Shown in pieces: positions 4,307-24,002 of a stretch of DNA of 64,000 bases. Both the position numbers and the translations under genes were made by a program. Below the pieces are notes generated by a model that did not search any database, was not told the origin of the DNA, and saw only the letters and a list, made by a program, of their open reading frames with translations. The DNA comes from Sphagnum compactum (Eukaryota): positions 19,272,213 through 19,336,212 of the forward strand of contig OZ234493.1 in assembly GCA_965153455.1 (NCBI GenBank), read 5' to 3'. Within the stretch, counting starts at the first letter, position 1. Each line of letters begins with the position of its first letter.

Positions 4307-10015
<5,709 letters not shown>

Positions 10016-10117
10016 CGTTGTGCAAATCCTTTTTCTCTTCCGGCTCGGTTGTGAAATTCTCCTCCTGCAATTCTGTTTCTGAAAACTCTCCAACAACTTG
10101 GCATATGGGTGGCACTT

Positions 10118-10320
10118 AAACCCTAAACCTAAAACCAGTGTGACCGACCAAATACGGAGCCTTGTTTTTTTCAGCTCCAAAATACGAAGAATACAGGCGT
10201 ACTCAAAATGGGCAGCGTTCAAAAAAATGCTCCGTGTGGAGTACGAATGTAAAGTTTCATATCGATTGAAAATTAACTTGGGCTCCACGCTTGCTGCTCA
10301 CTAGTGTAGACCGGCCCATC
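10118..10320. promoter_or_regulatory. XPB proximal promoter with telo-box and site II-like element
   Basis: AAACCCTAA at about 10118 and GGCCCA at about 10312, just upstream of the XPB start. This pairing is known from plant housekeeping promoters. Confidence 0.45.
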
Positions 10321-10402
10321 ACCGATCGCCTGCCTATGACCAAACACTTCTTTATGTCTTCTTCATCATATGTGCTTCATTTTGGAGTGATTTTAAATGT
10401 TA

Positions 10403-11490
10403 CTAGTTTGAACCCCGCGCCTAATGCACAGGTGTGTTATTTCAACAATGTTTCGTTCATGTTTTAGTTTTTTTTTTTAACTTTTATCTTTTTTATTTTT
10501 TATTTTTATGTGTTTTCTGTTTTTATTATTATTTTGTATAATGGGCACACAAAGCGCAAAGGAAAAGGATTAGTGAAAAAAATAACAAGAAGAAAAATTA
10601 AGCTTTTCACCTTACAAAATGCTTTTTCTTTTTCTTTTTTCTTCTTTTTCGATCTCTCCTACTTATAACTTCATAACTTTTTTATTCATTTTAAACAATT
10701 TAAAGTGCAATAGGAGCGTCACCTGAACGCTTTTACAAATCAATCTTTGAACTTTAATAGCAATAAAGCAACGTACAAGGAATTTTTTGGGTGTTTGAGA
10801 ACTGACCTTTGTAATGTTCACTGGTTTGTTTTTTTTTTGAGTTTTTGACCCACTCTACTTTGGGGGTGCAGAACTTTCTCAATTTTTAATCCGTTTTCAA
10901 AAATTGTTAGTGTGTCAAATGCATCGAGAGGAGGGGTTCAAGTTTTGTTTGGACACCAAAGACGATGGAGCCCTACCCTTGGATTTGGCTTACTTTGAAT
11001 GTTTAAATGGAACAATGAATTAATGAAAAAGATGAGTTGATTTTGCAAAGATGAAGGTTTCATTTCAATAATTTAAATATTAATTGAATTTGCAGAATGT
11101 AACTTGAATTGAATGCAAATTAATTAAATTTGAATTGAATTCAAAGATATTGTGAAATTATTGTTCAATTCAAAATTTTAAATTGAAATGAATTGAATTG
11201 AACATAATGATATTTCCCTTTGGATTCAACATGGGTACTATTTTTATTGACATTTGAATTGAATTGAATTAAATTGGATTCAATTGAATATATTTTGGAT
11301 GAATTTAATTTAGTTTTAATAAAAATTAAATTAAATCCAAATTAGTTTCAGTTAATTTTTTTTCATAATTTTGTTGAGTTGAATTCAACCAAATTATGAA
11401 ATTTTAATTATGAGAAAACACATGTTAATTTGTTTTTTATATTCATGGGAGTGGGTTGACAACGGAGTGACATAATTAAGTAGTTATAGA
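10403..11490 (-). mobile_element. Non-autonomous Helitron
   Basis: The minus strand ends in a GC-rich hairpin (cctgtgc-attag-gcgcggg) followed by gttcaaaCTAG and then T. Candidate 5' end TCTATAACTACTTAA at 11490, although it is preceded by T rather than the canonical A. Confidence 0.6.
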
Positions 11491-14400
11491 ATGTTTTCAT
11501 AATTGTCAAGTGGATGGGGTTCAAAATTGTCATGGTGCCAATCATTAATGAACCTTATACATGTTTCATAGGTTTAACAAAAGCTGCAAGGTTTAGCAAA
11601 AAGCCCTTCAATATCTCTATAAGCAATTAATTGTTAAGTATTTATTTGTTCCCTTATATTAGGAAAAAAATTGTTCACAAAATTTTTTCATCATCTTTCT
11701 ATTTGTCTCTTGACCCTTCCTTCTCCAAGATACAAATCCAACACAATAAATATGGCTATGTATAAATAAATGCATAATCTTGCAAAATGTGATATATTTT
11801 TTTCTTTGTTTTTTGGTTGATAAATCCATTCCATTGAACTGTTCTTTGAGATGACTCATATATAATTTGAACCCCATTTAACAATCCTCCCAAAGTTGAT
11901 AACCTTTTTAAATTGATAAAAATCATGTACATTGATGTTGTTCTTATTATCTTAAATGATTTTTTTTTATATCTAATTTTTTTTCAATAAATATTTGTTT
12001 AGGGAAGTCTACTTATGTATTTTATTTTTGGTTTCCAATTTGTAGTGAAAATTATTGAAAGATGATTAAATATTTGAACTTTATATTTGGTTCAAATTTG
12101 GTTAAATTTTCCAACTGCCAATTGCCATTTTTTCTACATAGAAGCTATGGATGATAACCATTTTGGCTTCATAAAAAGTTTTTAAAAAACCATTGAACAT
12201 TGTGATTCTGTTTAATGTTGTGTTCGGCATGGTTTGTTGGTACAATACTAATGTTTTGTAGATTTGTGATGCACTTTGCAACTACACTACCAAAAAATAA
12301 TAATAATATTTTTTACAAAAAAAATTATTATTATTATACATTTATATCCTTTCAACCTTATTTCCTAGCCATTAAGCATAAAAAAGTTTATTTAATATAT
12401 TATCATTTATCAAAGGGATTTTGGTTTCATGATATCCTTTAATACTTGAGATTACTTTTGTCCATTAATCATTTCATTTGATGGGGGTCAAACTATACTC
12501 ATAAAAAATTTAGATTGTTATAGATATCCTTAAATTCACAAGTCGCATAAATGAAAATTTTGGTTTGGTGTTCTTAACCACCAATTTAACACCTTTCCGA
12601 AAATTGATTATTCTAGTATCTTAATGGATTAGGCAATAAATTTTTTTTAGTTTTCAGTTTTAAAAAAAAATTATTTTGAATGTCAAATTTTCAAATTTTA
12701 GTAATTGTGGCAAGTCCAAGTTGCACCATCAAATTGGGCATGTCATACAATGCAAATTCAAGAAATGAAACACTACCCATTTGGTGAGGTATTTTGATCT
12801 TGAACATCATTGTTTTCTAATTCCTTCAAGGAAATGGTTGATTGTCATCTTTATTATCTCCATTTAACCACTAGTTTGAATTTTTTTTGTGAAAACTCCA
12901 TTTAAGGATAACTTTGTTTCTTTTCTATTGTTGCAAAACAGATAACCAAATTGTGAAAAAGAGGTTATATTATTGAGAAGGTGGAGATCATAGACAAATT
13001 TGTTATTTGATAAAATCATGGGTTCCATTTCAATGCATATTGGACCTTTTTAGCAAACAAGAATTCATGTAAAGGCACATGTGGACAAAAACTAAAAAAT
13101 GTAGCAAATGAATGATGTGCATCAAAATGGATGAAAAATGAGATTACTTCATTCATGTTGAAAACATAAATAAATTTATAACGTGGGCTGAAATCATTGA
13201 AAAAGATATGTAATGTGTCAAATTGCATTTTAAACAATTAATTAATTATTCAGCACAAAAGAGCCAAATTTGTTCAAGTACTAAGGTATTCAAAAGACAA
13301 CATTATACACCCTCTTTTTCCTCAAGTCCTTTCTACCCACTCTTTCCATTCAGAAGTAATTATCATTTGTTGCACAACAAATTTCAATATCAAGAGCCTT
13401 TCCAACATAACAAAATCACTCTAAATAAATTAGATTGCAACTTAATTTACAACTATTTTTTAGTTGCAAATGATGCATGCAACTAAAATCTTTGTAATTA
13501 CATAAGTCAAGTTACATGCACACAACAATTGCAAAGAATGTTAAACTAAACAATTGATTTAGTGCAATGTAAATGAACTATGCCTAAATGTCACCTAGTG
13601 ACATAACCACTTCGTATGCCAACATGGCCTAGTAAATAGTGTTCCAAGCAATTATTTTGGTGTGCCTCTTGGTTGCACCATGTGTAGCCCCATTGTCAAG
13701 TTTGTTTAGACACATGTAAGTTCATTAACAATTGAAGATAATGAAAGAATAAAAACCTTGTGAATCTCAACTAACAAATTTGGTGATATAGATGCATCCA
13801 TATGGTGTGTAATGATCAAAGAGAATATTTGTGGATCATGTGGCTTATGATCTACCACATGTAAATATATAATAATTGCATTAATAATTTTAATAAAATT
13901 TCCATATATAGTTTTAAGACATTTAAATTACATTTACATGTATAATTATGGTTTAAGGTTGAAGCTCTAAATTTATGTTTTATTATATAATTAGGGTTTT
14001 GACATTAGGATATTAGGATTGGGTTTTGGTATTAGGTTGGTATTAAGATTGGTAATAGGGTTGTGATAAGGGTTTTACCTTGTTTCATGCACACAAATCC
14101 AAAAAAATCAGGTAGCAATTTTGGTTCAAGAATTGTCAACAAAATGCACAATTGCATCTACTACTTTGCTTGCCTTCATTATATCTTTAAATACACTAAC
14201 ACATCTCATATTATAATCTACCATGCATAAGGACACCATAGTTTATGACACATCAAACACAAGCATATTCCTTAATTTCCCTTTGAGGGGTCAAAATTAC
14301 ACATACTAGATGGTCCTTTGCAATCCTTAGACATGTTGTTGGCTAACATTTCAATTATATCATTGTAAAAAAAATTGAAGATACAAATTACTCATCAACA

Positions 14401-15360
14401 TATACATGGTGGTTCAAATTTAGATCTCACCATCCTTTAAGACAACACCTTGCTATCATCACCTATCATGGGATTTCATAAACATTGAACTTTTCTTTCA
14501 CATAAATCGGCCTTTCCAAACAAAAATATTATGCCAATTACATCTTTCATCTTGAGTTGTGATGGGTCATGATTTTAATTGGGCACTTGCAAGTGAATAT
14601 TACCTTGGCCTTCCATGATTTCACATAATCAGAGTAGCTATGTATTAGAATGGACAAAAAAAGGCAAATGAAAACTTCACAATTTCACAAGATGTTTCAA
14701 TAACAATCAATACAACAAATCATTAATGCCACTAATGGAAAGGAAAAATGAACTATGCCAACATTTCCATTTTGTAGTTTATTCAAGGAGAAATAACAAG
14801 ATCACATAAAAACCCATAGGTTTGTGAGAACCCTAAATTCTCAATTCAAAACATGGGGCACATTAGCTTAGCAAACGTGGCATGTGACATTAAACACTTT
14901 TATGAAATCATTTCCTCCTTAAATTGATGGTCACCAAACCTTCCAATTGCTTAGAGAATCAACCTTCATTAAATGAAATCAATTAAGTTTCCATAAAGCA
15001 CCTATAAAAGGATTTCATAGATTTTGATCATTTGTAATCTATAACACCAAAAAAAGGTTACTAGGGGTAGAAGTTGTAAATAATAATAAAATGGTTTATG
15101 GGTAGAATGATGGGTATGTATAAGAAATAAATAATGCAACCTATGGGCCTTATCTTGAAAATCCTTGACTTAGGACATAGGCTTAAATTCATGAATAATT
15201 GAATCAACTATTTTTGGTTAAACATGATTAAAAATGAATTAACTTCATGTAATTAAATCTTTAAAAACATATTTCAAATAATTTAATGACTCACACACAC
15301 ACACACACACACACAATTTTAAATAGAATTTTGTTGATGTGGCAACTTGTGTTAATTCAA

Positions 15361-16907
15361 TAAGTACCCTAGGTTGATATGGGGGGGTATTAACTAACAT
15401 TGCAAATGGGGAGGGACAATTATATGAGTGGATTGTAACCTAGAAAGGGTTTGGACCTACCATGAAGGTTAATCTTGAATTAAGTTCTTATTGCTTAGAC
15501 CTACCAATTGATGGGTGGCTACTAATGGGGCCTCCCTTTTTTTCTTTGTGGGGGTAGGGGGAGGGTAAGATTTTTTTTTGGGGAGGGAAAGGAAAAAAAT
15601 ATTGCACAACATGCAAATTGATTATCCATTGTCCACATGGAGAATGGATAATCATTCTCTAGATGCATAGATAAGGGGAGGGATGAAAAGACTAAAAGGT
15701 GGAGGTTGTAACTTTGTTTCAGGTTGTTTGTTTTGTACAAGATGGGACATTTAAAAGATGTTGCAAAAGAAGCAGGGCTTCCCGAATGAAAGATTTAAAA
15801 AAATTGTTGGAAGTTTGTGACTATTGTTGTGGGATGGTTTGATGTAAATCCTAGTTTATTGTCTAAGATGGAAATGTTCATAAAAAAAGAATGTGTAGTT
15901 GGGCTTTGTGCATTAGAAAGGGGTGGCACTCTTTCACATCTTCATATGCAAGTGGTTGTTAAGCTTCATATTTCAAGTTTAAAATGTTGAACAAGGTTCT
16001 CAAAGAGGGGTTGGGGTGGGATGATCCAAAGAAAGCACCAAATGGGCATGTTGTGCATTGCAAGTAGTTATGAGACACGCCTTCATACATTTGTTGGTAT
16101 GGTTGGCTATTATATGAAAGATATTGATGAAGATCATTTTCAATTTGTGCATCATAATGTTAGTGGGGAAATGATGGAGGTTGGCATGTTAAAGTTTGTC
16201 AAATATGGAATCACAATAGTGAAAAATTGAATGTGTCTCACACATCAAAATGTTTTGGATTGCACAACAAATGTTTCATAAGCATGAGATAAAAAAATGA
16301 TGAATTAATATCTTGCAGGGGTTTTACGCCACATGATTCAAACTTGTCAATTTTATCCCGTAGTTGGTTGGGTGGTTCCGTTTCATAACACTGGAATGGA
16401 TCATTAACGATCGGAGTCTTTATGGAAATGCATGATTGCACCACATTTGATGGATCTTCATGACATAACTCAAATTTTTTTTTAACATTCCTCACTTGGG
16501 TCAAAAAATTGGGAAGCTAAAAGGGAGAGTTGTATAATTATCTCTGTAAAGAAAATGTCAAAATAAATTACAGTTGTTCACCATTAGAAGTGCCTAGTGA
16601 TTATGATGGACTGTAGCAAGATTTCCATTTAGATTTTGTGCCTTTGTATTCAAATAATGCCCATGTTTTTAAAGCATTGTTGCAATATGTGTAGTGTTAC
16701 TATGAATAAAACTTTTGTTTCATATCATTCACATTTTAAAAGAATTGTCCTTTTTTGTGACATTTTTTACAAGTTTTTTTCCCTTTTGGACCAATCAATG
16801 AATTTATTACATTTGAAGTTGACACTTCAACCCCCATGACCCCCATTAATGTAATACAAAGATCAATTAATACCCAAAAGGTGGGGTGTTCTTTGCAAGG
16901 GGTATTA
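15361..16907 (+). mobile_element. Replitron-like HUH endonuclease transposon relic, copy 1
   Basis: Decayed ORF at about 15814-16290: FVTIVVGWFDVNPSLL...GLCALERGGTLSHLHMQVVVK (HUH at 15937-15945), then after frameshifts LNKVLKEGLGWD and LHTFVGMVGYYMKD (YxxK at 16108-16119), EDHFQFVHHNVS. Contains internal stops and frameshifts; ends are approximate. Confidence 0.8.
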
Positions 16908-18103
16908 GCCCAAGCAAAAAATGGTGACGAACTTTATTGGGAAGAGAAATTTCATGCAATCAATGGGAAGGTCCAAACATGCATTCAAGGTGCCTTGTTC
17001 TTTTTTATTTTGAGTTTGGTTAATGGGGAAGGGGGCAGGGGGGGGGGGGGTGGTGGGGAGGGGAGGTTTCCTTTTTCAAGCTATATTTGGTGTGGAGAAT
17101 GGATTATCCATTGTTCACTATCCACTTCAACAATGGACTTTCCATGCAAGTTTTAGGGGAGAGGGAGGGGTGTGTCAAAGGGTTTCAACTTAGGCATGAC
17201 AAGGAAGATGAAGGTTCAATATGTACATTGTTATTTAAGAAGTGCCATTAACTCAAGTTGCAATTGGTTAGGGGAGGATCAATTTATCTTGTTTCCATGG
17301 GAAAAATATCTTAGATGAAGGTTTTGGCTAACAAAGCTCCAAAGTTCAAGTCTACACAAGATTTTTTGAAATATTTTGAAGTGTGTCACTACTGGCATTG
17401 TAGGTTTTGATTTTGATCCTTCATGTTTGATGTTCATTGAAGTAGGGTGAAAGTTTGTTTCACTTGCATTTTCAAATGGTTTGTAAGCTCAAGACTGCTA
17501 GCCTAAATTGTCATTGCACAAGGCGTTGAAAGTTACATTACATGGGATTAAGAAATGTGCATGCTTCTTTTTGAAACTATTGAATTGCAAAATTTTGTTA
17601 ATATATTTTCTGATTCTACCTTTGTTTCATTTACATATCAATATTGGTTTTGAATGAAGTGGCTGAAACAATGCCCCAAATTTTTATTTTTATTTTTGTT
17701 AATGTAAGAAATACCATAGAAGACGCTATAAAGGATTTTCATCATGAGTAAGAAGCAGTTCTTGCTAATGCAAAGGATATGTGGGACGAGGTTTTGGAGA
17801 GTGAAGATGATGATGTTTGTGTTGAAATTCCAAATTTCATCTAGCTTTTGGATGGTCCTCTCCACAAAAATATTTTAGTTTTTAATCATGGCTTGCCATG
17901 TATATATGTTTTTGTAATAAGGTTTTTGCTTTCTTTTTATTTTAAGAAAGCCTGTGAAGTTTTCAATTTTACTAATGGTGAGCCAATCGGAATGGTCTAT
18001 TTGAAAAAAAAAGAATCTAAACTTGGGAGACAATTTATCTAATGAATAGAAGAGCTGAATAGGACATGTTATTTTGAATAAGTAGGGTGTTCTTAGGGTG
18101 TTA
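16868..18103 (+). mobile_element. Replitron-like HUH element relic, copy 2 (diverged, internally deleted)
   Basis: About 17340-17550 translates across frameshifts to KYFEV..TTGIVGFDFDPSCL...LFHLHFQMVCKLKTASL..LHKALKVTL (HLHFQ at 17461-17475), collinear with copy 1. It has the same upstream G-tract and hairpin. No YxxK motif was found. Confidence 0.65.
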
Positions 18104-18872
18104 TTGCATTTGCTTCATAACATCTAATTTAACATATAAATGAATGGATGGGCCTATAACTTAATGTTACACAACTATGAAAATTATTGTACCCCTACTT
18201 CCTCCCCTTTCCCCCACCCTTTGCATGCACAAGCATTCACCATGAAACAAATTGATGATGAATCAATATGAGGCATTCAAGTTTTATGAGGTGTGTTCAA
18301 TTGAACATTCCTCAGTTACAAATCAAACAAGAAATTACAAAAATCACAAATTTTCACTCTTCATTTTTCCAAGCTTGTTGCAACTTGTAGCATGGACATA
18401 TTTAAAACTAAATGTTTAAATCCTCTTGAAAGAAAAATTTCAATTTAAGAATTCTACAAAGGAACAAAAACGTGTGCAATATTGCACGTTTGTGAGTCCA
18501 CTCCCTAGAGAGCTTGCCATTATTTTGCTCAGAATTTCCCTTGACATATAGTCAAAGACATGTGGCAAAGTCAATGTAAAACTTGAGCGAGAAGGAGACC
18601 CTATTGGTCAATAATCTAAAAGATGATGAAAATGAACATGGAGAAAACAGAGTGATGATCAATCAACAAAGCTCATAGGAACAAATAGAAGAAAAAATTT
18701 GAATAGCACAAAGATGTTGACAAAACAAAAATGAACATTGCAAAAATGCATTGATGGCAAAACTACATAGCACACAAAAACAAATAGAAGGGCAAAAAAA
18801 AAGGAACAACACAACTTGATGCAAATTGCAAAGAAATGATGGAATGATGTCTTCAAAAAGTTTCAACACCAC

Positions 18873-19286
18873 TGTGCAAAGGTTGCTAGGTTGACAGATC
18901 GAGGTTGTGCAAAAAGTTATGGTGTGATGACAGACAAAAAATGATCCCATTATCTTTGTGCATAGATATGAACTTTGAATAAACAATAGCTTTCATTAGT
19001 ATAGATCTGAGGAGGACCAATCAAGAGATTAAATACAAGGGAACAATCCCAGATGGATAGCAAGTTTCGGTGGTCACCGGGACATATCTCAAGATTCACT
19101 ATTCTAACTATTGGTGATTCACTGGTATTACTATAATAATTAACTGTTATCCACCATCACTACTACATTGATCAATTGCCTAACTTATGTAACTATGAAT
19201 TCTAACAATCTACTTAAATATGTTAACTATTAAATCTAAGTTCCTGCCTATCTCCCACTTATGGAGACAGGTGTGAAAATACAACA
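18873..19286 (-). mobile_element. Putative LTR followed by a degenerate PBS
   Basis: The minus strand starts TGTTG and ends TGCACA, followed directly by gTGGTGTTGAAAC (PBS-like). No second LTR or TSD was found. Confidence 0.35.
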
Positions 19287-19699
19287 CATGATTAAACATA
19301 TGATTAACCATTATTATGATTAAGCATGATTAAAAATTACAAGAGCACCTTTGCATCATGTAACATCTCTTTGTATGTGAATAAGCGCCAAAAATAATCA
19401 TAATCCAGTCACAAAATAACTCATGGGGTTTGACATCTTGTCCATTAGGAACACAGAAATGCAGCTTATTTACAACCATGCCAGAGGTTCCAAACATACA
19501 AGACATATACACTCCCCTTCAAAATCATGTGATTGTGTTCCACTCTCTGAGGTGTGTATTTGCTTCCCGAGATGTGCACTGGTTTCCTAGTAAGGTCCAT
19601 TTGATGGAAGACTTTGCAGGGACCTGTAATTGATCCATAAGGATTTACAGATAAATAGTGGCATAATAAACACTGCATTTTATTATGCCACTATTAATG

Positions 19700-22600
19700 A
19701 ATTTGGACTCCATTTGTAGTTTTTGGTATGCATCAGAGAGGTGCAAACACAGTGCGGATGGTGCTTCAATGCTCATTCTCTTGGCACATTACAGTGACCA
19801 ATCTCCTGATATCTGTTTCTACTGACAATGCTTTTTAGGACATCAGAGTCAACTTAAAACCTGGACTATAGGTCATAAACTATTTCTTGTTCCACGGTCT
19901 TGTGATTGGATGTGAGAACCATATATCTGTACTTCAATTGACAAGAGATTGAGCCAAAAAAGTTTGATGGGCATTCTTGTTTAATGCAGAAAAACATTAT
20001 GTGCATTCTGCAAAGAGATTTAAGTGAGAAGCTCTTCCTCAGCAGGAAAACCTAAGAATTTTCTTGTCTCTTTTGATTCCAGTTCATGTGATCAATGTGA
20101 CTTCATGTTTTCTGCTTTTATAGGTCCATTGTCACAGATTAAGCTGAAATTTCCCCATGTCACATCCATTGAGACAGAAGAATTTTTAATTCATCAGGAT
20201 TCTATCCCCATCTTCCCACTCTTTCTGCCAGGCATACTCCCGGGCATATTGCAGAAGTACTCATTATCCTCCATTTAGATGATCACTCCAGAGTATCTGC
20301 CTCTGAGAAATTCACCTAACGTCTTTTTGAGATTGTAATTTTCTATGTTCTTCACAGACTTCTTCATGTTTGCTATGTGGGATGCTACCTTCAGGTGTCA
20401 CTATCTCAGCTAGTAAAAGGGGATGGCCAGAGTCCACGAGGTCCCATTCTCAGCGTTGTAGGCAAGGTGAGTTGTCCACTACCAAAGTGCCAAAATTCAG
20501 GGATTGACCATTTCTCCTCTATGGGGAGTGACATTCTCATTGTATGAAGACTATGGGTAATTGTGCACTGCATGAAGACAGAACTTGAAACCTGTGCCCA
20601 AAGAGAGGATAGTTTGCATGGAGCTTGATATAAGCTAAGAATTGACATTGTTAACATTTGTTGGAATGCATACTTCTTTTCAGGCAAATCTGACTCATTT
20701 AGGTCCCATGGTTGTTAGACATGCAACTCCAGTGATGTCAGTGATGTCAAATTGGCTGATCTGATTGTGTTGCATCCCTTTACAATAGAGTGATTCCAGG
20801 TGCTTGTAATTGTTCCACAGCTCATGCATTCTGCTCCTTCCAGTACCTCTAGGCTAGATAGGTCTCATAGTCTGGGTCTCACTGATTCTCCAATTACCAT
20901 GTGCACATTGCTTGTGATTGTTCTAACTATTTTAGACCTGCACTTTGAATATATGCAGTGGACACTCCATACTGACCTCTGAATGTTTTTTGTGGATTAG
21001 AATGCAGATATTTGTCTTTCAAGTAAGCTATGAAGCTAGCAGGTCTGGAACCCAGCAATTCCTGAAGACAGTTAAATTCCCTTTTCATTGCAAAATCTCA
21101 AATCCCATACCAAGAGGCAAAGCCTGAACATGAATATGCGCCTGACATGCTCAGTCAAGTCATTTTAATTGATGTGAGTGGTTAGGGAGTAAGTTGGGAT
21201 TGGCTCTTAAGGTTTGCCAAGTTTTGTGAGGGACTCTGCTCCAAAAAGATCAAGTCAATCCTGACCATTGCACATGGGGACTGTTTCTTGTAGATGGCAT
21301 TACCTAGTGGGTCAGGGCATTCATGACAGCAATGTTGATTGACATGGCTGGCTCCTTCACTCTAGCACTACGCTGGCAACATATTATCTTGTTAAACAAC
21401 TGTGTGTTTATCTTGAGGTTTGTAAACAATCCACTTTCAACCAGCACTTGGATTCAGGATGAAGGGGTTGATCCACCTACAGAGCCATACGAACAGCCAG
21501 AGTTTAGAAGAACTGTCTAATGTATTTAAGGTATGCCCACTTGTATGCAATACATTGTCTTTCCCTGCTATTTTTTTCATCGAAATGTTTGCAGAGCTTG
21601 AACATTAGTAAGAGTTTTCTTGACAGTAATGTTAGTCATATCCCAGTCCCCCGCAGGTAAGAGGATACCTGAGTCTGGATTTTGGTCTTTGGTTGTAGCC
21701 ACCTGAAGTAACTAGCCATGCCATTCCATGAAACAATACCTGAGAGGCTAGCAAAGTTGGCAAGGAGAAGCAGCCTGCATGTTTGTGGAAATCAAATTCC
21801 TAGACACCAAAGTACACACTCTCATTACACATGACCCTGGTTGAATCCTTTGCACTTTCATTAGGAGCTTTGCTGGACAAGAGCTGTCAGCTGTTCCTCA
21901 CCAAGTGGCTCTAATGACCATCTATACTACAGGCTCATATCAGAGTAATGACAGTACAACAATATGGTATCGCAGATTCAATTTGAGAGGCATGTTGACA
22001 CCAACTCCAGGCAACTGCCTCATGAATCCCATGATCAGATTGAAGACTTGATTCTTGATTCTTTGTGCCCGGCATTCCATCATGAGAGATCACATGCAAT
22101 GTTAGTCCTTCACTGCTCAAAAGTGACACAGACTTAACACAAATCTTTGCAGTAAGGACCCAGATTGGAAACTTCTATAGATTTAGGATTCTAATTGAGA
22201 TTATCACAACCATCCAAGCAATACAACATTCGGGAGGTAACAAGCATGCATGTAGAGAGCCGCAGGAAGACAAAGAGCATGTCCACTCCATGTACATAGT
22301 GCTAAAACCGAAATCAATCTTCATGGGCAACATTGTCCAGAATATATGCAGCCAACATGCTCATCAACTGTTCAAGAAACATGCAAGACTCACCAAACAT
22401 TCTCAGCTTCTTTCTGCTGTCACTTTCCTGATTGCAACACACAATCCCCTTACTGCAATCCATTGTCCACAACATTTTGTTCAAGGAAAAGAATTACACA
22501 AAGATGATATCAGCAGGAAATTCAAATCCCTCTTCAAATACTATCCAATTTTGTTCAATTGAAGCAAACAAAAAAACCCACAAAGCATAAAGTTCTGATC

Positions 22601-23260
22601 CACCATCAGGTCTGCAAAAGCTAGGAGACAGTGCTGGTGAGCATGTTGGGCATAATGAAAAGGCACAAACAGGACCAAGTACACAAAAACCTCACTGCTA
22701 AGGGCAGCTAAAATAGGTTTCAATCAAGTTTGCTGATGCAACAGTCCTGGCATGGTAGTTGTTCACCACTATTATCCAGAAAATGATGGGATTGGATGCG
22801 TACATGGCACAAGCCTGACAAAAATTCTCAATAGCATAACTTGTGGGAAACTGTCACAAAACATCATGTGCCATGACTGTCATTCCAGACACCTTTGTCA
22901 CTCTGCAGAGGTAGTCATCACCATCTCGCTAACAGACATTCATGCTTCCAGACATACCTATGTGATTGCAGATAAAAACTTGACAACACCACTTTGGAGG
23001 TAAAACAAAACCATTGAGTGCAATATTAACTATATGAGAGTCATTCACAAAGTGTAAGATCGTCACCTTCATCATGAGTAGCAGGCAACAAAACTGCCAT
23101 GACTCCCCACTCCTGTCAGCATAGATAAGTGCATAATAATCTGGTCAAAATTACAGGCAAACTATTATGCAGATATCTGTGTACTGAGTTTCTGTTGCAT
23201 TTCCAGAAGCAATGAGAAGACTCAAGTCATGTTGGCTGGCATCAAGAGACATAACTTCCA
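19700..23260 (-). mobile_element. Highly decayed LINE-like retroelement relic
   Basis: Only short, broken motif-like pieces in LINE ORF2 order on the minus strand: GVMAVLL (about 23100), CAMVRIDL (about 21265), FAMKR/FIAY (about 21030-21095), Cys/His-rich piece (about 19760). No long ORF. Confidence 0.35.
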
Positions 23261-23471
23261 CACAGCACACATTATGAATATGTATTTGCAGAAGAAATGC
23301 AGAAAAAACTACATTTCATCTCCTAGGACCTAAACCAAGCGTGACTATACTGGTGGCAAAATTTTGTCTTCATCAATCCCACTTCTTTGTCCAAGACTGT
23401 TCAGTATGGCCAGAAAGCAATGGGAAGTAATTCCTATGTCTGCTCTCTCTCTCTGCATCTCTTTTCCAACC

Positions 23472-24002
23472 CTAAAATTGCAACTTCTTCTTATGATGCC
23501 TCTCCTTCTTCAAGCGGCCTTGGCTCTTCCCTCTCTTCTTCTTGATGCCTCCCTGCGCCTGCAACAACCTTCCTGTGACCGCACTTCCACCAGCAATGCC
23601 GTCATTATTCATAGCACTTTCACTCTGTCCAACTCTGCCTCGAGTTTGCTCCTCCACCTCTGTCCCCACCATTTTAACATGCTCACTCAGTCACGAAACC
23701 CTAAACACAGACACTGTGTCTCTGACCCACACAGGCATGCCGGCACCTGCTTCATTGTACTGCCATATATTCACCTGTATTTAGAACTTAAAACAAACCT
23801 GTTTTGTAAAAGAGAGAAGAAGGTACTTACCCATAGACTCAGAGTCGCTGCGTCTCTTCGGGAGCTCGATCTTGGGCGCTTGGGCAGCGGCCTCTTGCGC
23901 CGCCAGCTTGGCCAGCTCCTTGGCATCATAGTGAGGAGCCACCAACTCCCGCTTCAAAGTGCGCAGTCTCTTCAACCTCTTGGACCTGATCGACTTCCCC
24001 AT
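23472..24002 (-). CDS. LLP-homolog / learning-associated protein (Laps)-like small basic protein, 2 exons
   Basis: Exons 23831-24002 and 23472-23659 (GT-AG, phase 1). N-terminus MGKSIRSKRLKRLRTLKRE resembles the LLP family MAKSLRSKxKR; the C-terminus is K/R-rich. Confidence 0.8.

Follow-up and report, generated by a model that had tools for sequence, protein, structure and literature searches.

In Helitrons a two-tyrosine Rep is joined to a Pif1-type helicase, and the element is bounded by TC and CTRR (TC..CTRR), with a hairpin near its 3' end; CRESS-DNA Reps carry a superfamily 3 helicase, and their origin is a stem-loop with a conserved nonanucleotide in the loop. Replitrons were first described in 2023, and in the sections of that description used here the insertion signatures come from one algal element, with termini elsewhere uncertain (Craig 2023, PNAS, PMC10288648). 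Their direct terminal repeats measure 5-11 bp (PMC10741241). The published set includes an element from Sphagnum magellanicum, Replitron-1_sMag, entered as 'incomplete' at 1,529 bp with 8.3% mean divergence (Dataset S1) and, in that entry, with no termini defined (PMC10288648). Helitrons and Helentrons are likewise eukaryotic HUH rolling-circle elements, whose arrays are attributed to their mechanism in the part of the source drawn on (PMC12001565), and for the Helitron-type Helraiser circular intermediates with joined ends are reported in the portion consulted (PMC4778049). The bacterial HUH elements IS200/IS605 and IS91 have end hairpins and use a target that resembles their own cleavage site, as summarised in the Replitron paper's relevant passages (PMC10288648); they are prokaryotic, and their Reps are unrelated to those of the family analysed here.

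We analysed a 64 kb window, the whole stretch of DNA at hand. The region in Table 1 is a long-dead array of DNA transposons of the Replitron family, which have a single-tyrosine HUH 'Rep'; on balance we favour the fuller account in which it was built up by insertion at the ends of resident copies. The anatomy taken separately, that is the copies, the stub and their termini, is held with high confidence. The family shares with described Replitrons a single-tyrosine Rep, a HUQ-type motif II, GYxxK and the lack of a helicase, as well as short direct terminal repeats, non-autonomous derivatives and presence in moss, and no terminal inverted repeats are noted in the compared sections (PMC10288648).

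Table 1 Features of the Replitron-family array, in window coordinates.
Feature	Position	Strand	Description
Copy 1	15361-16875	+	1,515 bp, full-length, non-functional Rep-bearing Replitron-family element
Left terminal direct repeat R, copy 1	15360..15369	+	ATAAGTACCC; doubles as 5' arm of the left-end hairpin
GGGTATTA, copy 1	15385..15392	+	Forms the hairpin's 3' arm at the left end; supplies the first bases of the conserved left module
Internal palindrome, strong	15619..15654	+	Upstream of the copy 1 Rep frame; inverted repeat I5, 17-nt arms, 94% complementary
Rep pseudogene, copy 1	15805..16479	+	HUH domain ~15817-16188; second-domain remnant ~16321-16479
Rep-type tail, copy 1	16776..16875	+	Ends in right terminal repeat TTAATACCC, 16867-16875; right ends aligned
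Copy 2	16876..18065	+	~1.19 kb, Rep-bearing, heavily decayed, different subfamily from copy 1
Type-ii leader, copy 2, hairpin-less	16876..16907	+	AAAAGGTG, GGGTGTTCTT (16884-16893), TGCAAG, GGGTATTA (16900-16907)
Rep remnants, copy 2	17385..17511	+	Two pieces in separate reading frames: VTTGIVGFDFDPS (frame of 17385) and HLHFQMV (17461-17481)
Right terminal repeat, copy 2, degenerate	18057..18065	+	GAATAGGAC
Third left end, type-ii stub, 28 nt	18076..18103	+	GAATAAGTA, GGGTGTTCTT, A, GGGTGTTA; homologous to 16876-16907

Copy 1 is full-length and belongs to a ~1.5 kb Replitron family, but its Rep gene is broken. The family DNA profile, built from 16 copies that all come from loci other than the window's, matches 15362-16871 at model positions 4-1454 of 1458 (1266 bits); identity to copies at other loci is 69-86%, and the nhmmer tail profile RE matches 16776-16874 (E 3.6e-27). 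The read-through translation passes Pfam PF21859 Replitron_HUH (E 2.2e-13, 51.1 bits, cut-off 28.5) and contains VTIV, HLHMQ and GYYMK in order, GYYMK being its single Tyr motif. Read through in one frame, the gene has six in-frame stops and a longest stop-to-stop frame of 79 aa, and by eye ~15980-16060 reads better in a different frame. The second (C-terminal, possibly oligomerisation) domain, PF21860 Replitron_C, reaches 23.3-24.6 bits on copy 1 (cut-off 27), covering profile positions 24-77 only, and 18.9 bits on the relative P0003. The internal palindrome has a DNA fold that none of 200 shuffles equalled (-12.5 kcal/mol, z -5.15), and it recurs in 7 of the 16 copies taken from other loci. 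With both copies read through in three frames, no other Pfam family and no helicase came up at E<=10, the whole element measuring ~1.5 kb. A Helitron was set aside on the one Tyr motif (GYYMK) and on finding no helicase or Helitron domain in any frame.

Copy 2 belongs to another subfamily; its tail is of the type found on the short non-autonomous relatives, and very little is left of its Rep. The family profile, in whose building the window had no part, matches 16894-17429 (~535 nt; model positions 20-446; E 7.6e-26), and the left module at 16900-17021 is matched at E 2.6e-33 and is 73-85% identical to copies elsewhere. Its tail (17949-18058) is recognised by the N-type tail profile (E 2.8e-9) and not by the Rep-type one, the reverse of copy 1. 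The degenerate right repeat aligns with GAATAAGTACCCC / GAATAGGTA, the ends of the short relatives, and the type-ii leader recurs in L018/L020 and, inverted, in L004/L017; in three sequencing runs 11, 17 and 19 contigs begin matching at 16879, preceded by unlike sequence. Pfam searches of copy 2 in three frames gave no family at E<=10, and tblastn within the window, with the copy 1 Rep as query, matched 17431-17511 (52% over 27 aa, E 0.003). The earlier note had placed a second HUH motif, HLHFQMV, at 17461 in a context collinear with copy 1, and the spacing agrees: the offsets from GGGTATTA in copies 1 and 2 are +432 and +485 for the motif I-like stretch, and +552 and +561 for the HUH-like stretch. 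Its reading of two Replitron-family units head to tail is upheld by the Pfam match on copy 1 and the DNA and tail profiles on copy 2.

By eye, the Replitron-1_sMag consensus (~1.5 kb) starts with the left module of copy 2, ..ATTAGCCYAAGCCAAAAATGGTGAC.., closes with a tail resembling those of copy 2 and the short relatives, and carries a stop inside its HUH motif; its leader before ATTAGCC, ACCCAACC, is another variant. The Rep region of copy 1 looks clearly more diverged from it, again by eye, and we therefore treat the copy 1 family as a sibling and not as the same family.

At the DNA level copies 1 and 2 share almost nothing beyond 21 nt of a palindrome and a 63-nt stretch at 68%, and together with the different tail types this bears out the previous view that the pair is not a recent duplication. 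Since the two belong to different subfamilies, a tandem duplication or rolling-circle concatemer of one element that then diverged for a long time is very improbable. Tandem arrays possible for rolling-circle elements such as Helitrons (PMC12001565) and the joined-end circles of Helraiser (PMC4778049), both from the source sections cited above, speak for such an origin; against it, the copies differ in leader type as well as tail type, each is closer to relatives at other loci than to its neighbour (judged by identities, not a tree), and arrays elsewhere likewise join unlike partners, a Rep element beside a short non-autonomous one.

Direct reading and pattern search both returned the junction motifs where they had been reported: GGGTATTA at 15385-15392 and 16900-16907 and GGGTGTTA at 18096-18103, all on the + strand, with TAAGTACCC (15361-15369) and TAATACCC (16868-16875) upstream of the first two and GGGTGTTCTT (16884-16893 and 18085-18094) ahead of the last two. 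The bare 8-mer occurs six times on both strands of the window, where 3.68 matches are expected and 16 of 100 shuffles reach six; it stands beyond chance by its context, the same place in the left ends of related copies at other loci. We fetched 43 related loci, which collapse to 12 independent ones including the window's, a small sample found via the Rep gene and made up of metagenome contigs of presumed host DNA, and set the termini by comparison with the 11 others. In left ends with unrelated upstream flanks, ATAAGTACCC is the first conserved stretch, and the family profile begins at 15362. The terminal direct repeat is thus ATAAGTACCC(C), 10-11 nt at both ends, in line with the short repeats of Replitrons; at left ends GGGTATTA follows it after 21-25 nt. 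Free right ends finish with this repeat, as ..AAGTACCCC, and GGGTRTTA is found there in 0 of 11, so that the motif marks left ends only. At the left end the pairing partner of the repeat is GGGG(G)TATTA, with an AT-rich loop of ~11 nt between the two, and the most conserved left module, ATTAGCC..AAAAATGGTGA.., comes directly after this hairpin or leader. With the repeat present at both ends, GGGTATTA is therefore a left-end feature and not a boundary. In distant subfamilies conservation starts only from ATTAGCC onward. Runs X6, X10 and X11 carry ..ATAAGTACCCCCAGTTTATAATG before 16899 on 8, 18 and 15 contigs, and loose ends in the sequencing runs fall before 16899, 16884 and 16879.

The motif had been taken for a terminus or nick site. 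It does mark left ends, while the boundary itself lies at ATAAGTACCC(C); the corresponding expectation that homology among copies ends at the motif fails, as the aligned left ends begin 21-25 nt upstream of it. Likewise, of three motifs said to delimit two elements, the first two do sit at left ends, and the third belongs to a truncated third left end rather than to the right end of copy 2. At the aligned ends we see by eye no target-site duplication, no conserved target base and no RG target, which differs from the Replitron signatures in the sections compared (PMC10288648).

The claim that the first two motifs form hairpins with their upstream partners holds as far as imperfect inverted repeats and pairing kept across relatives go, but in the window these fold no better than shuffled sequence. 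Junction 1 folds at -2.2 kcal/mol, equalled by 136 of 200 shuffles; the best fold of junction 2 pairs TAATACCC with GGGGTGTT, not with GGGTATTA; and no fold was found for junction 3. One relative has a strong homologous hairpin, at the L014 junction (-9.7 kcal/mol, matched by none of 200 shuffles). Over 11 left ends the share of paired cells is 84%, compared with 40-58% when the partner is slid, and covariation is weak (2 pairs change on both sides, a number that 168 of 500 shuffles reach). Replitron-1, in the passages on its ends, has a possible hairpin at the right end (PMC10288648), whereas here the repeat forms the 5' arm of a hairpin at the left end.

We consider it extremely improbable that the region is not a transposon but the integrated remains of a CRESS-like or satellite-like episome, a ~1.5 kb unit with Rep only and an origin hairpin at its junctions. 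The GC-rich stem with AT-rich loop adjoining the Rep unit is reminiscent of such origins, but the loop consensus AGTTTATAAT lacks what we take to be the conserved CRESS nonanucleotide, and the GTATTA inside GGGTATTA sits in the stem. A weak link of Replitron Reps to CRESS-DNA Reps is mentioned in the sections used (Craig, PMC10288648); the copies, however, are dispersed singly among unrelated flanks and have terminal direct repeats, an abundant internally deleted derivative exists, and the domain match is to the Replitron family models, with no helicase domain found. Judged by membership features, a CRESS-DNA virus or satellite relic was rejected for the same absence of a helicase in the three-frame read-through.

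The stub that closes the array ends before the conserved left module, and downstream of it the left-module, tail and family profiles are all without a match. In run X6, ..AAATAAGTA lies immediately 5' of GGGTGTTC on 8 contigs, as further evidence of the stub. An R-like ATTATTGTACCCC at ~18184-18196 had prompted a candidate mini third element at 18076-18195; it has no profile support, its sole match being on the wrong strand (E 0.076).

The element is dispersed, multicopy and set in unrelated flanks. Its short non-autonomous relative measures ~430-460 bp, and the left module occurs on 63, 76 and 95 distinct contigs in three runs. Among public proteins, 10 of 47 candidates are fragmentary relatives with E<=0.001. 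All 20 Rep copies that we examined are broken, and no intact Rep is among them.

Enrichment of end-to-end arrays, the check that had been proposed, is borne out among the related loci. In the 12 representative loci (15 left-module starts, 17 tails) there are 5 tail-to-head junctions with gaps of 18-38 nt, where 20,000 trials of random placement give a mean of 0.06 and a maximum of 2. Such arrays are thus frequent in this family; by comparison, the word 'tandem' appears 3 times in the Replitron paper, and the passages seen concern repeats of the plasmid pMV158 (PMC10288648). A sixth tail-to-head junction lies in L017. The partner of the Rep element is often the ~430-460 bp relative, one junction is tail to tail rather than head to tail (L025/L029), and junction anatomy varies: neighbours in L014 share a single repeat, and junction 2 of the window consists of two abutting repeats. 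In the sequencing runs the consensus ahead of the left hairpin is AT-rich and not a tail, and many copies genome-wide may therefore lie outside arrays.

Two independent insertions that happen to touch in a transposon-rich, AT-rich stretch are decidedly unlikely as an account of these junctions. The surroundings of the array do hold other repeats and indels, and the window contains one array only, with no further copies by blastn or four profiles; yet none of the random trials reached the five abutments observed. It is also unlikely that a composite element moves, either as both units or as a Rep unit with the following left module, the latter serving as a long terminal direct repeat. A left module does follow several Rep copies (the window, L004, L014, L018/L020), and the Replitron-1_sMag consensus, as given in Dataset S4, has two left modules ~180 nt apart at its 5' end (PMC10288648). 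However, the Rep element of L026 has a free tail followed by unrelated sequence, in L032 the tail is truncated and gives onto unrelated sequence, the closest short relative lying 806 bp further along, and the left module, on 63-95 contigs per run, has a summed depth far above that of the Rep body. Pairs of loci with a common arrangement are all syntenic over their full length (86-96% identity), so that a composite is not seen at any new place, and composite transposition was dropped as unsupported.

Insertion targeted to the ends of resident copies is the best reading of the arrays, although we place it slightly short of even. A Rep supplied in trans by an intact copy elsewhere would treat the repeat together with the leader as a site resembling an origin, and would terminate at the right repeat. 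The right repeat of a resident copy would itself be a Rep substrate, and we propose that it would for this reason be a preferred target of strand transfer; new copies would land exactly at old ends and build head-to-tail arrays of unrelated subfamily members. The logic resembles, by analogy, that of IS200/IS605 and IS91, with their target like the own cleavage site. Inside GGGT|ATTA, leaders that differ between subfamilies end and the universally conserved ATTAGCC module takes over, and the stub is cut 4 nt past this switch point. From such sequence patterns it is possible, if doubtful, that Replitron Reps target their own kind at the resident right repeat, that GGGT|ATTA marks the site of cleavage and joining, and that the stub is an end left by abortion or read-through. 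The order of insertion, the nick site and the choice of target are all inferred, since we found no empty site, no polymorphic insertion and no unbroken Rep. The array is already in place at the orthologous loci, which are 92-96% identical. They differ by imprecise deletions, L001 lacking 17029-17166 and L022 lacking 16469-17129.

What these comparisons add for a moss-type family is its terminal repeat, the hairpin or leader of the left end in several exchangeable forms, and a short non-autonomous derivative that is abundant. The strong surplus of end-to-end junctions makes the target choice of a helicase-less single-tyrosine Rep testable on defined oligonucleotides such as the repeat-loop-GGGGTATTA hairpin, and targeting of its own kind, if true, would be the first sequence-level handle on Replitron target choice and nick site outside Chlamydomonas. 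Arrays can also mislead consensus building, as the two left modules that open the published Replitron-1_sMag consensus illustrate.

A search of 13000-21000 against Rfam gave no match at E<=0.1. In the RNA run X22, 93 reads fall on the stretch, all of them partial and none at 95% or more; its junction reads match just ~55 nt of the left module and therefore derive from other copies.

The two elements in the window, copy 1 (15361-16875, full-length but broken) and the more decayed copy 2 (16876-18065), are Replitrons as judged by the HUH domain of copy 1, the missing helicase, terminal repeats and dispersed copies. Reading the Rep endonuclease of copy 1 through in a single frame (15805-16479, six stops entered as X) gave a match to Pfam Replitron_HUH over profile positions 2-124 of 128 (E 2.2e-13; 51.1 bits, cut-off 28.5) and a score of 23.3 bits for Replitron_C, under its cut-off of 27. 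Its VTIV, HLHMQ and GYYMK occur in the same order as motifs I-III of the Replitron Rep in Craig 2023 (PMC10288648). A Pfam search of both copies detected no helicase or other family in any frame, and copy 2 had zero matches at E<=10; its single tblastn match to the copy 1 Rep spans 27 residues (E 0.003). We found no further copies within the window. Rep is broken in all 20 copies examined (0 intact), with longest stop-to-stop frames of 60-153 aa.

We used a family DNA profile built from 16 copies, all from other loci. It matches copy 1 end to end (15362-16871, model positions 4-1454 of 1458) and copy 2 at 16894-17429 (positions 20-446, E 7.6e-26); therefore, the 5' third of copy 2 is a genuine family member. 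The left module of copy 2, the conserved stretch from ATTAGCC onward, is 73-85% identical to copies elsewhere. The last 110 nt of copy 2 match the tail profile of short non-autonomous relatives (17949-18058, E 2.8e-9), whereas the tail of copy 1 matches the Rep-type profile instead (16776-16874, E 3.6e-27), and the two copies share next to no DNA similarity. These tail types and the near-zero similarity bear out the earlier note's view of two diverged units without recent duplication: judged by sequence, the copies belong to different subfamilies, which disfavours an array arisen by duplication or as a concatemer. A strong palindrome at 15619-15654, which lies some 235 nt inside the element and folds at -12.5 kcal/mol (z -5.15), has a counterpart at 17093-17118 in copy 2 and recurs in 7 of 16 copies of other loci; in copy 1 it shows one G-C to A-T change in both arms (read by eye). 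It may be a Rep-binding or promoter element.

Relatives were taken from metagenome contigs, where 318 pattern matches yielded 43 loci (L001-L043) in 19 clusters at 97% identity; merging pairs syntenic over their full length at 86-96% left 12 independent loci, the window's counted. At left ends with unrelated upstream flanks (copy 1, L014, L026, L031 and L003/L008), the alignment begins at ATAAGTACCC(C), followed by an AT-rich loop, GGGG(G)TATTA and the module ATTAGCC..AAAAATGGTGA... Free right ends finish with ..AAGTACCCC or GAATARGTA(CCC) and pass into unrelated sequence. Since left ends begin and free right ends stop there, the alignments identify ATAAGTACCC(C) as the terminal direct repeat, whose 10-11 nt lie inside the 5-11 bp range stated for Replitrons in PMC10741241. 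Right ends often carry two partial terminal repeats a few bases apart, such as GAATAGGTA..GGTACCC (L020 7215-7245, L037 10400-10430, window 18057-18087). No target motif or target duplication was found.

The three motifs and HLHFQMV lie where the earlier note placed them, with both upstream partners and GGGTGTTCTT at the positions tabulated below. Its reading of the motifs as termini did not hold: homology starts 21-25 nt upstream of GGGTATTA, which sits that far internal to the left end, and exact GGGTRTTA within 70 nt past the tail occurs at 0 of 11 non-window tails without a following left module but at 4 of 6 array junctions. Motif 3 therefore belongs to the stub of another left end, after which there are no profile matches. 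On its own, the 8-mer shows no enrichment across the window (6 matches, with 3.68 expected); its significance rests on context, not on counts.

Motifs and associated features of the array (window coordinates)
Feature	Position	Remark
GGGTATTA	15385-15392 and 16900-16907	motif 1 and motif 2
GGGTGTTA	18096-18103	motif 3
TAAGTACCC	15361-15369	upstream partner of motif 1
TAATACCC	16868-16875	upstream partner of motif 2
GGGTGTTCTT	16884-16893 and 18085-18094	ahead of motifs 2 and 3
HLHFQMV	starts 17461	copy 2
Left-end stub, 28 nt	18076-18103	carries motif 3

The leader preceding the left module differs by subfamily (a hairpin type, a GGGTGTTCTTTGCAAG type and two further hairpin types), and only the stretch from ATTAGCC onward is common to all. 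In the three DNA runs, 8, 18 and 15 contigs match the window from 16899 on with ..ATAAGTACCCCCAGTTTATAATG just ahead; for the hairpin-less leader, the match begins at 16879 in 11, 17 and 19 contigs, with no consensus further upstream. The proposed hairpin between motif and upstream partner is moderately supported: pairing is kept across 11 left ends (84% of cells versus 40-58% with slid partners), with both-side changes in 2 pairs only, and the hairpin of one relative reaches -9.7 kcal/mol (z -3.8), but the window hairpins fold no better than shuffles.

The short non-autonomous relative, a unit of ~430-460 bp comprising left module, internal part and tail, recurs across loci. Three runs show the left module of this unit to be highly repeated: summed depth, which is not copy number, is 5,400-6,900 (bin 16744-16977) against ~3-60 in flanking, apparently low-copy bins, and position 16936 is covered by 63, 76 and 95 distinct contigs. 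Depth is 105-340 per bin over the Rep body and near flank level in the copy 2 interior.

The window, L004, L014, L020 and L025 each have a tail-to-head junction with a gap in the range 18-38 nt, which makes five among the 15 left-module starts and 17 tails of 12 representative loci. In 20,000 trials of random placement, junctions averaged 0.06 and never exceeded 2, which disfavours chance adjacency and upholds the suggested enrichment of head-to-tail arrays. A sixth junction, in L017, comes from the same locus as L004; L014 may run on into a third unit where its contig ends, and L025/L029 hold one tail-to-tail junction. Neighbours share one repeat at the L014 junction, and at the copy 1/copy 2 boundary the repeat of copy 1 adjoins copy 2's own leader. 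The data establish the anatomy, the assignment to the family and an excess of end-to-end junctions; in the mechanism we propose, repeat and leader would serve a Rep acting in trans as an origin-like site, the right repeat would be its terminator, and right repeats of resident copies would draw new insertions.

The array could instead be one composite unit. We disfavour this reading but keep it alive: L026 has a free tail, a truncated tail in L032 leads into unrelated sequence, and no composite was found at any non-syntenic site, whereas the published Replitron-1_sMag consensus contains two left modules. In that consensus (PMC10288648, Dataset S4) they lie ~180 nt apart at the 5' end, and it may contain an end-to-end junction of its own. 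Replitron-1_sMag, from Sphagnum magellanicum, is listed at 1,529 bp as 'incomplete' (Dataset S1); compared by eye only, its consensus has the same left module at its start and a similar tail at its end, a likeness that would suit a peat moss, or a relative of one, as origin of the window. This kind of element is already known and a sibling family published; the defined ends, left-end leader variants, short derivative and array excess are new. The three occurrences of 'tandem' in Craig 2023 refer, in the passages shown, to plasmid repeats.

The window locus has five orthologous or allelic counterparts (L001, L010, L011, L022 and L034). The earlier note had proposed comparison with an empty orthologous site; none was found, and L001 and L010, mostly 92-96% identical per piece to window 8000-23500 (one stretch 83-86%), already hold the same array. 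L001 lacks 17029-17166 (138 nt) and L022 lacks 16469-17129 (661 nt, taking out the copy 1/copy 2 junction); these differing internal deletions are in neither case precise excisions. Syntenic versions at 86-96% identity exist for 8 of the 12 loci and could reflect either genome duplication (homeologs) or the presence of two host species in the metagenomes.

A 907-bp stretch (14430-15336) lies immediately to the left of copy 1, ending 24 nt ahead of the terminal repeat; it has no Replitron features but includes a (CA)n run near 15293-15316. All five orthologous loci from the metagenomes lack it, with 14429 connected straight to 15337; among the DNA runs it is present in X6, at least its left part in X11, and its depth is near zero in X10. 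Further upstream, a different repeat family is indicated at 13000-13700, where contig depth summed over each of three runs stands at about 2 to 10 times the level of adjacent bins. In run X22, a short segment at 19476-19552 carries PolyA RNA reads to a depth of about 17 (first mate on the minus strand), with unlike sequence to either side; it resembles an exon, or else part of a paralogue that is transcribed.
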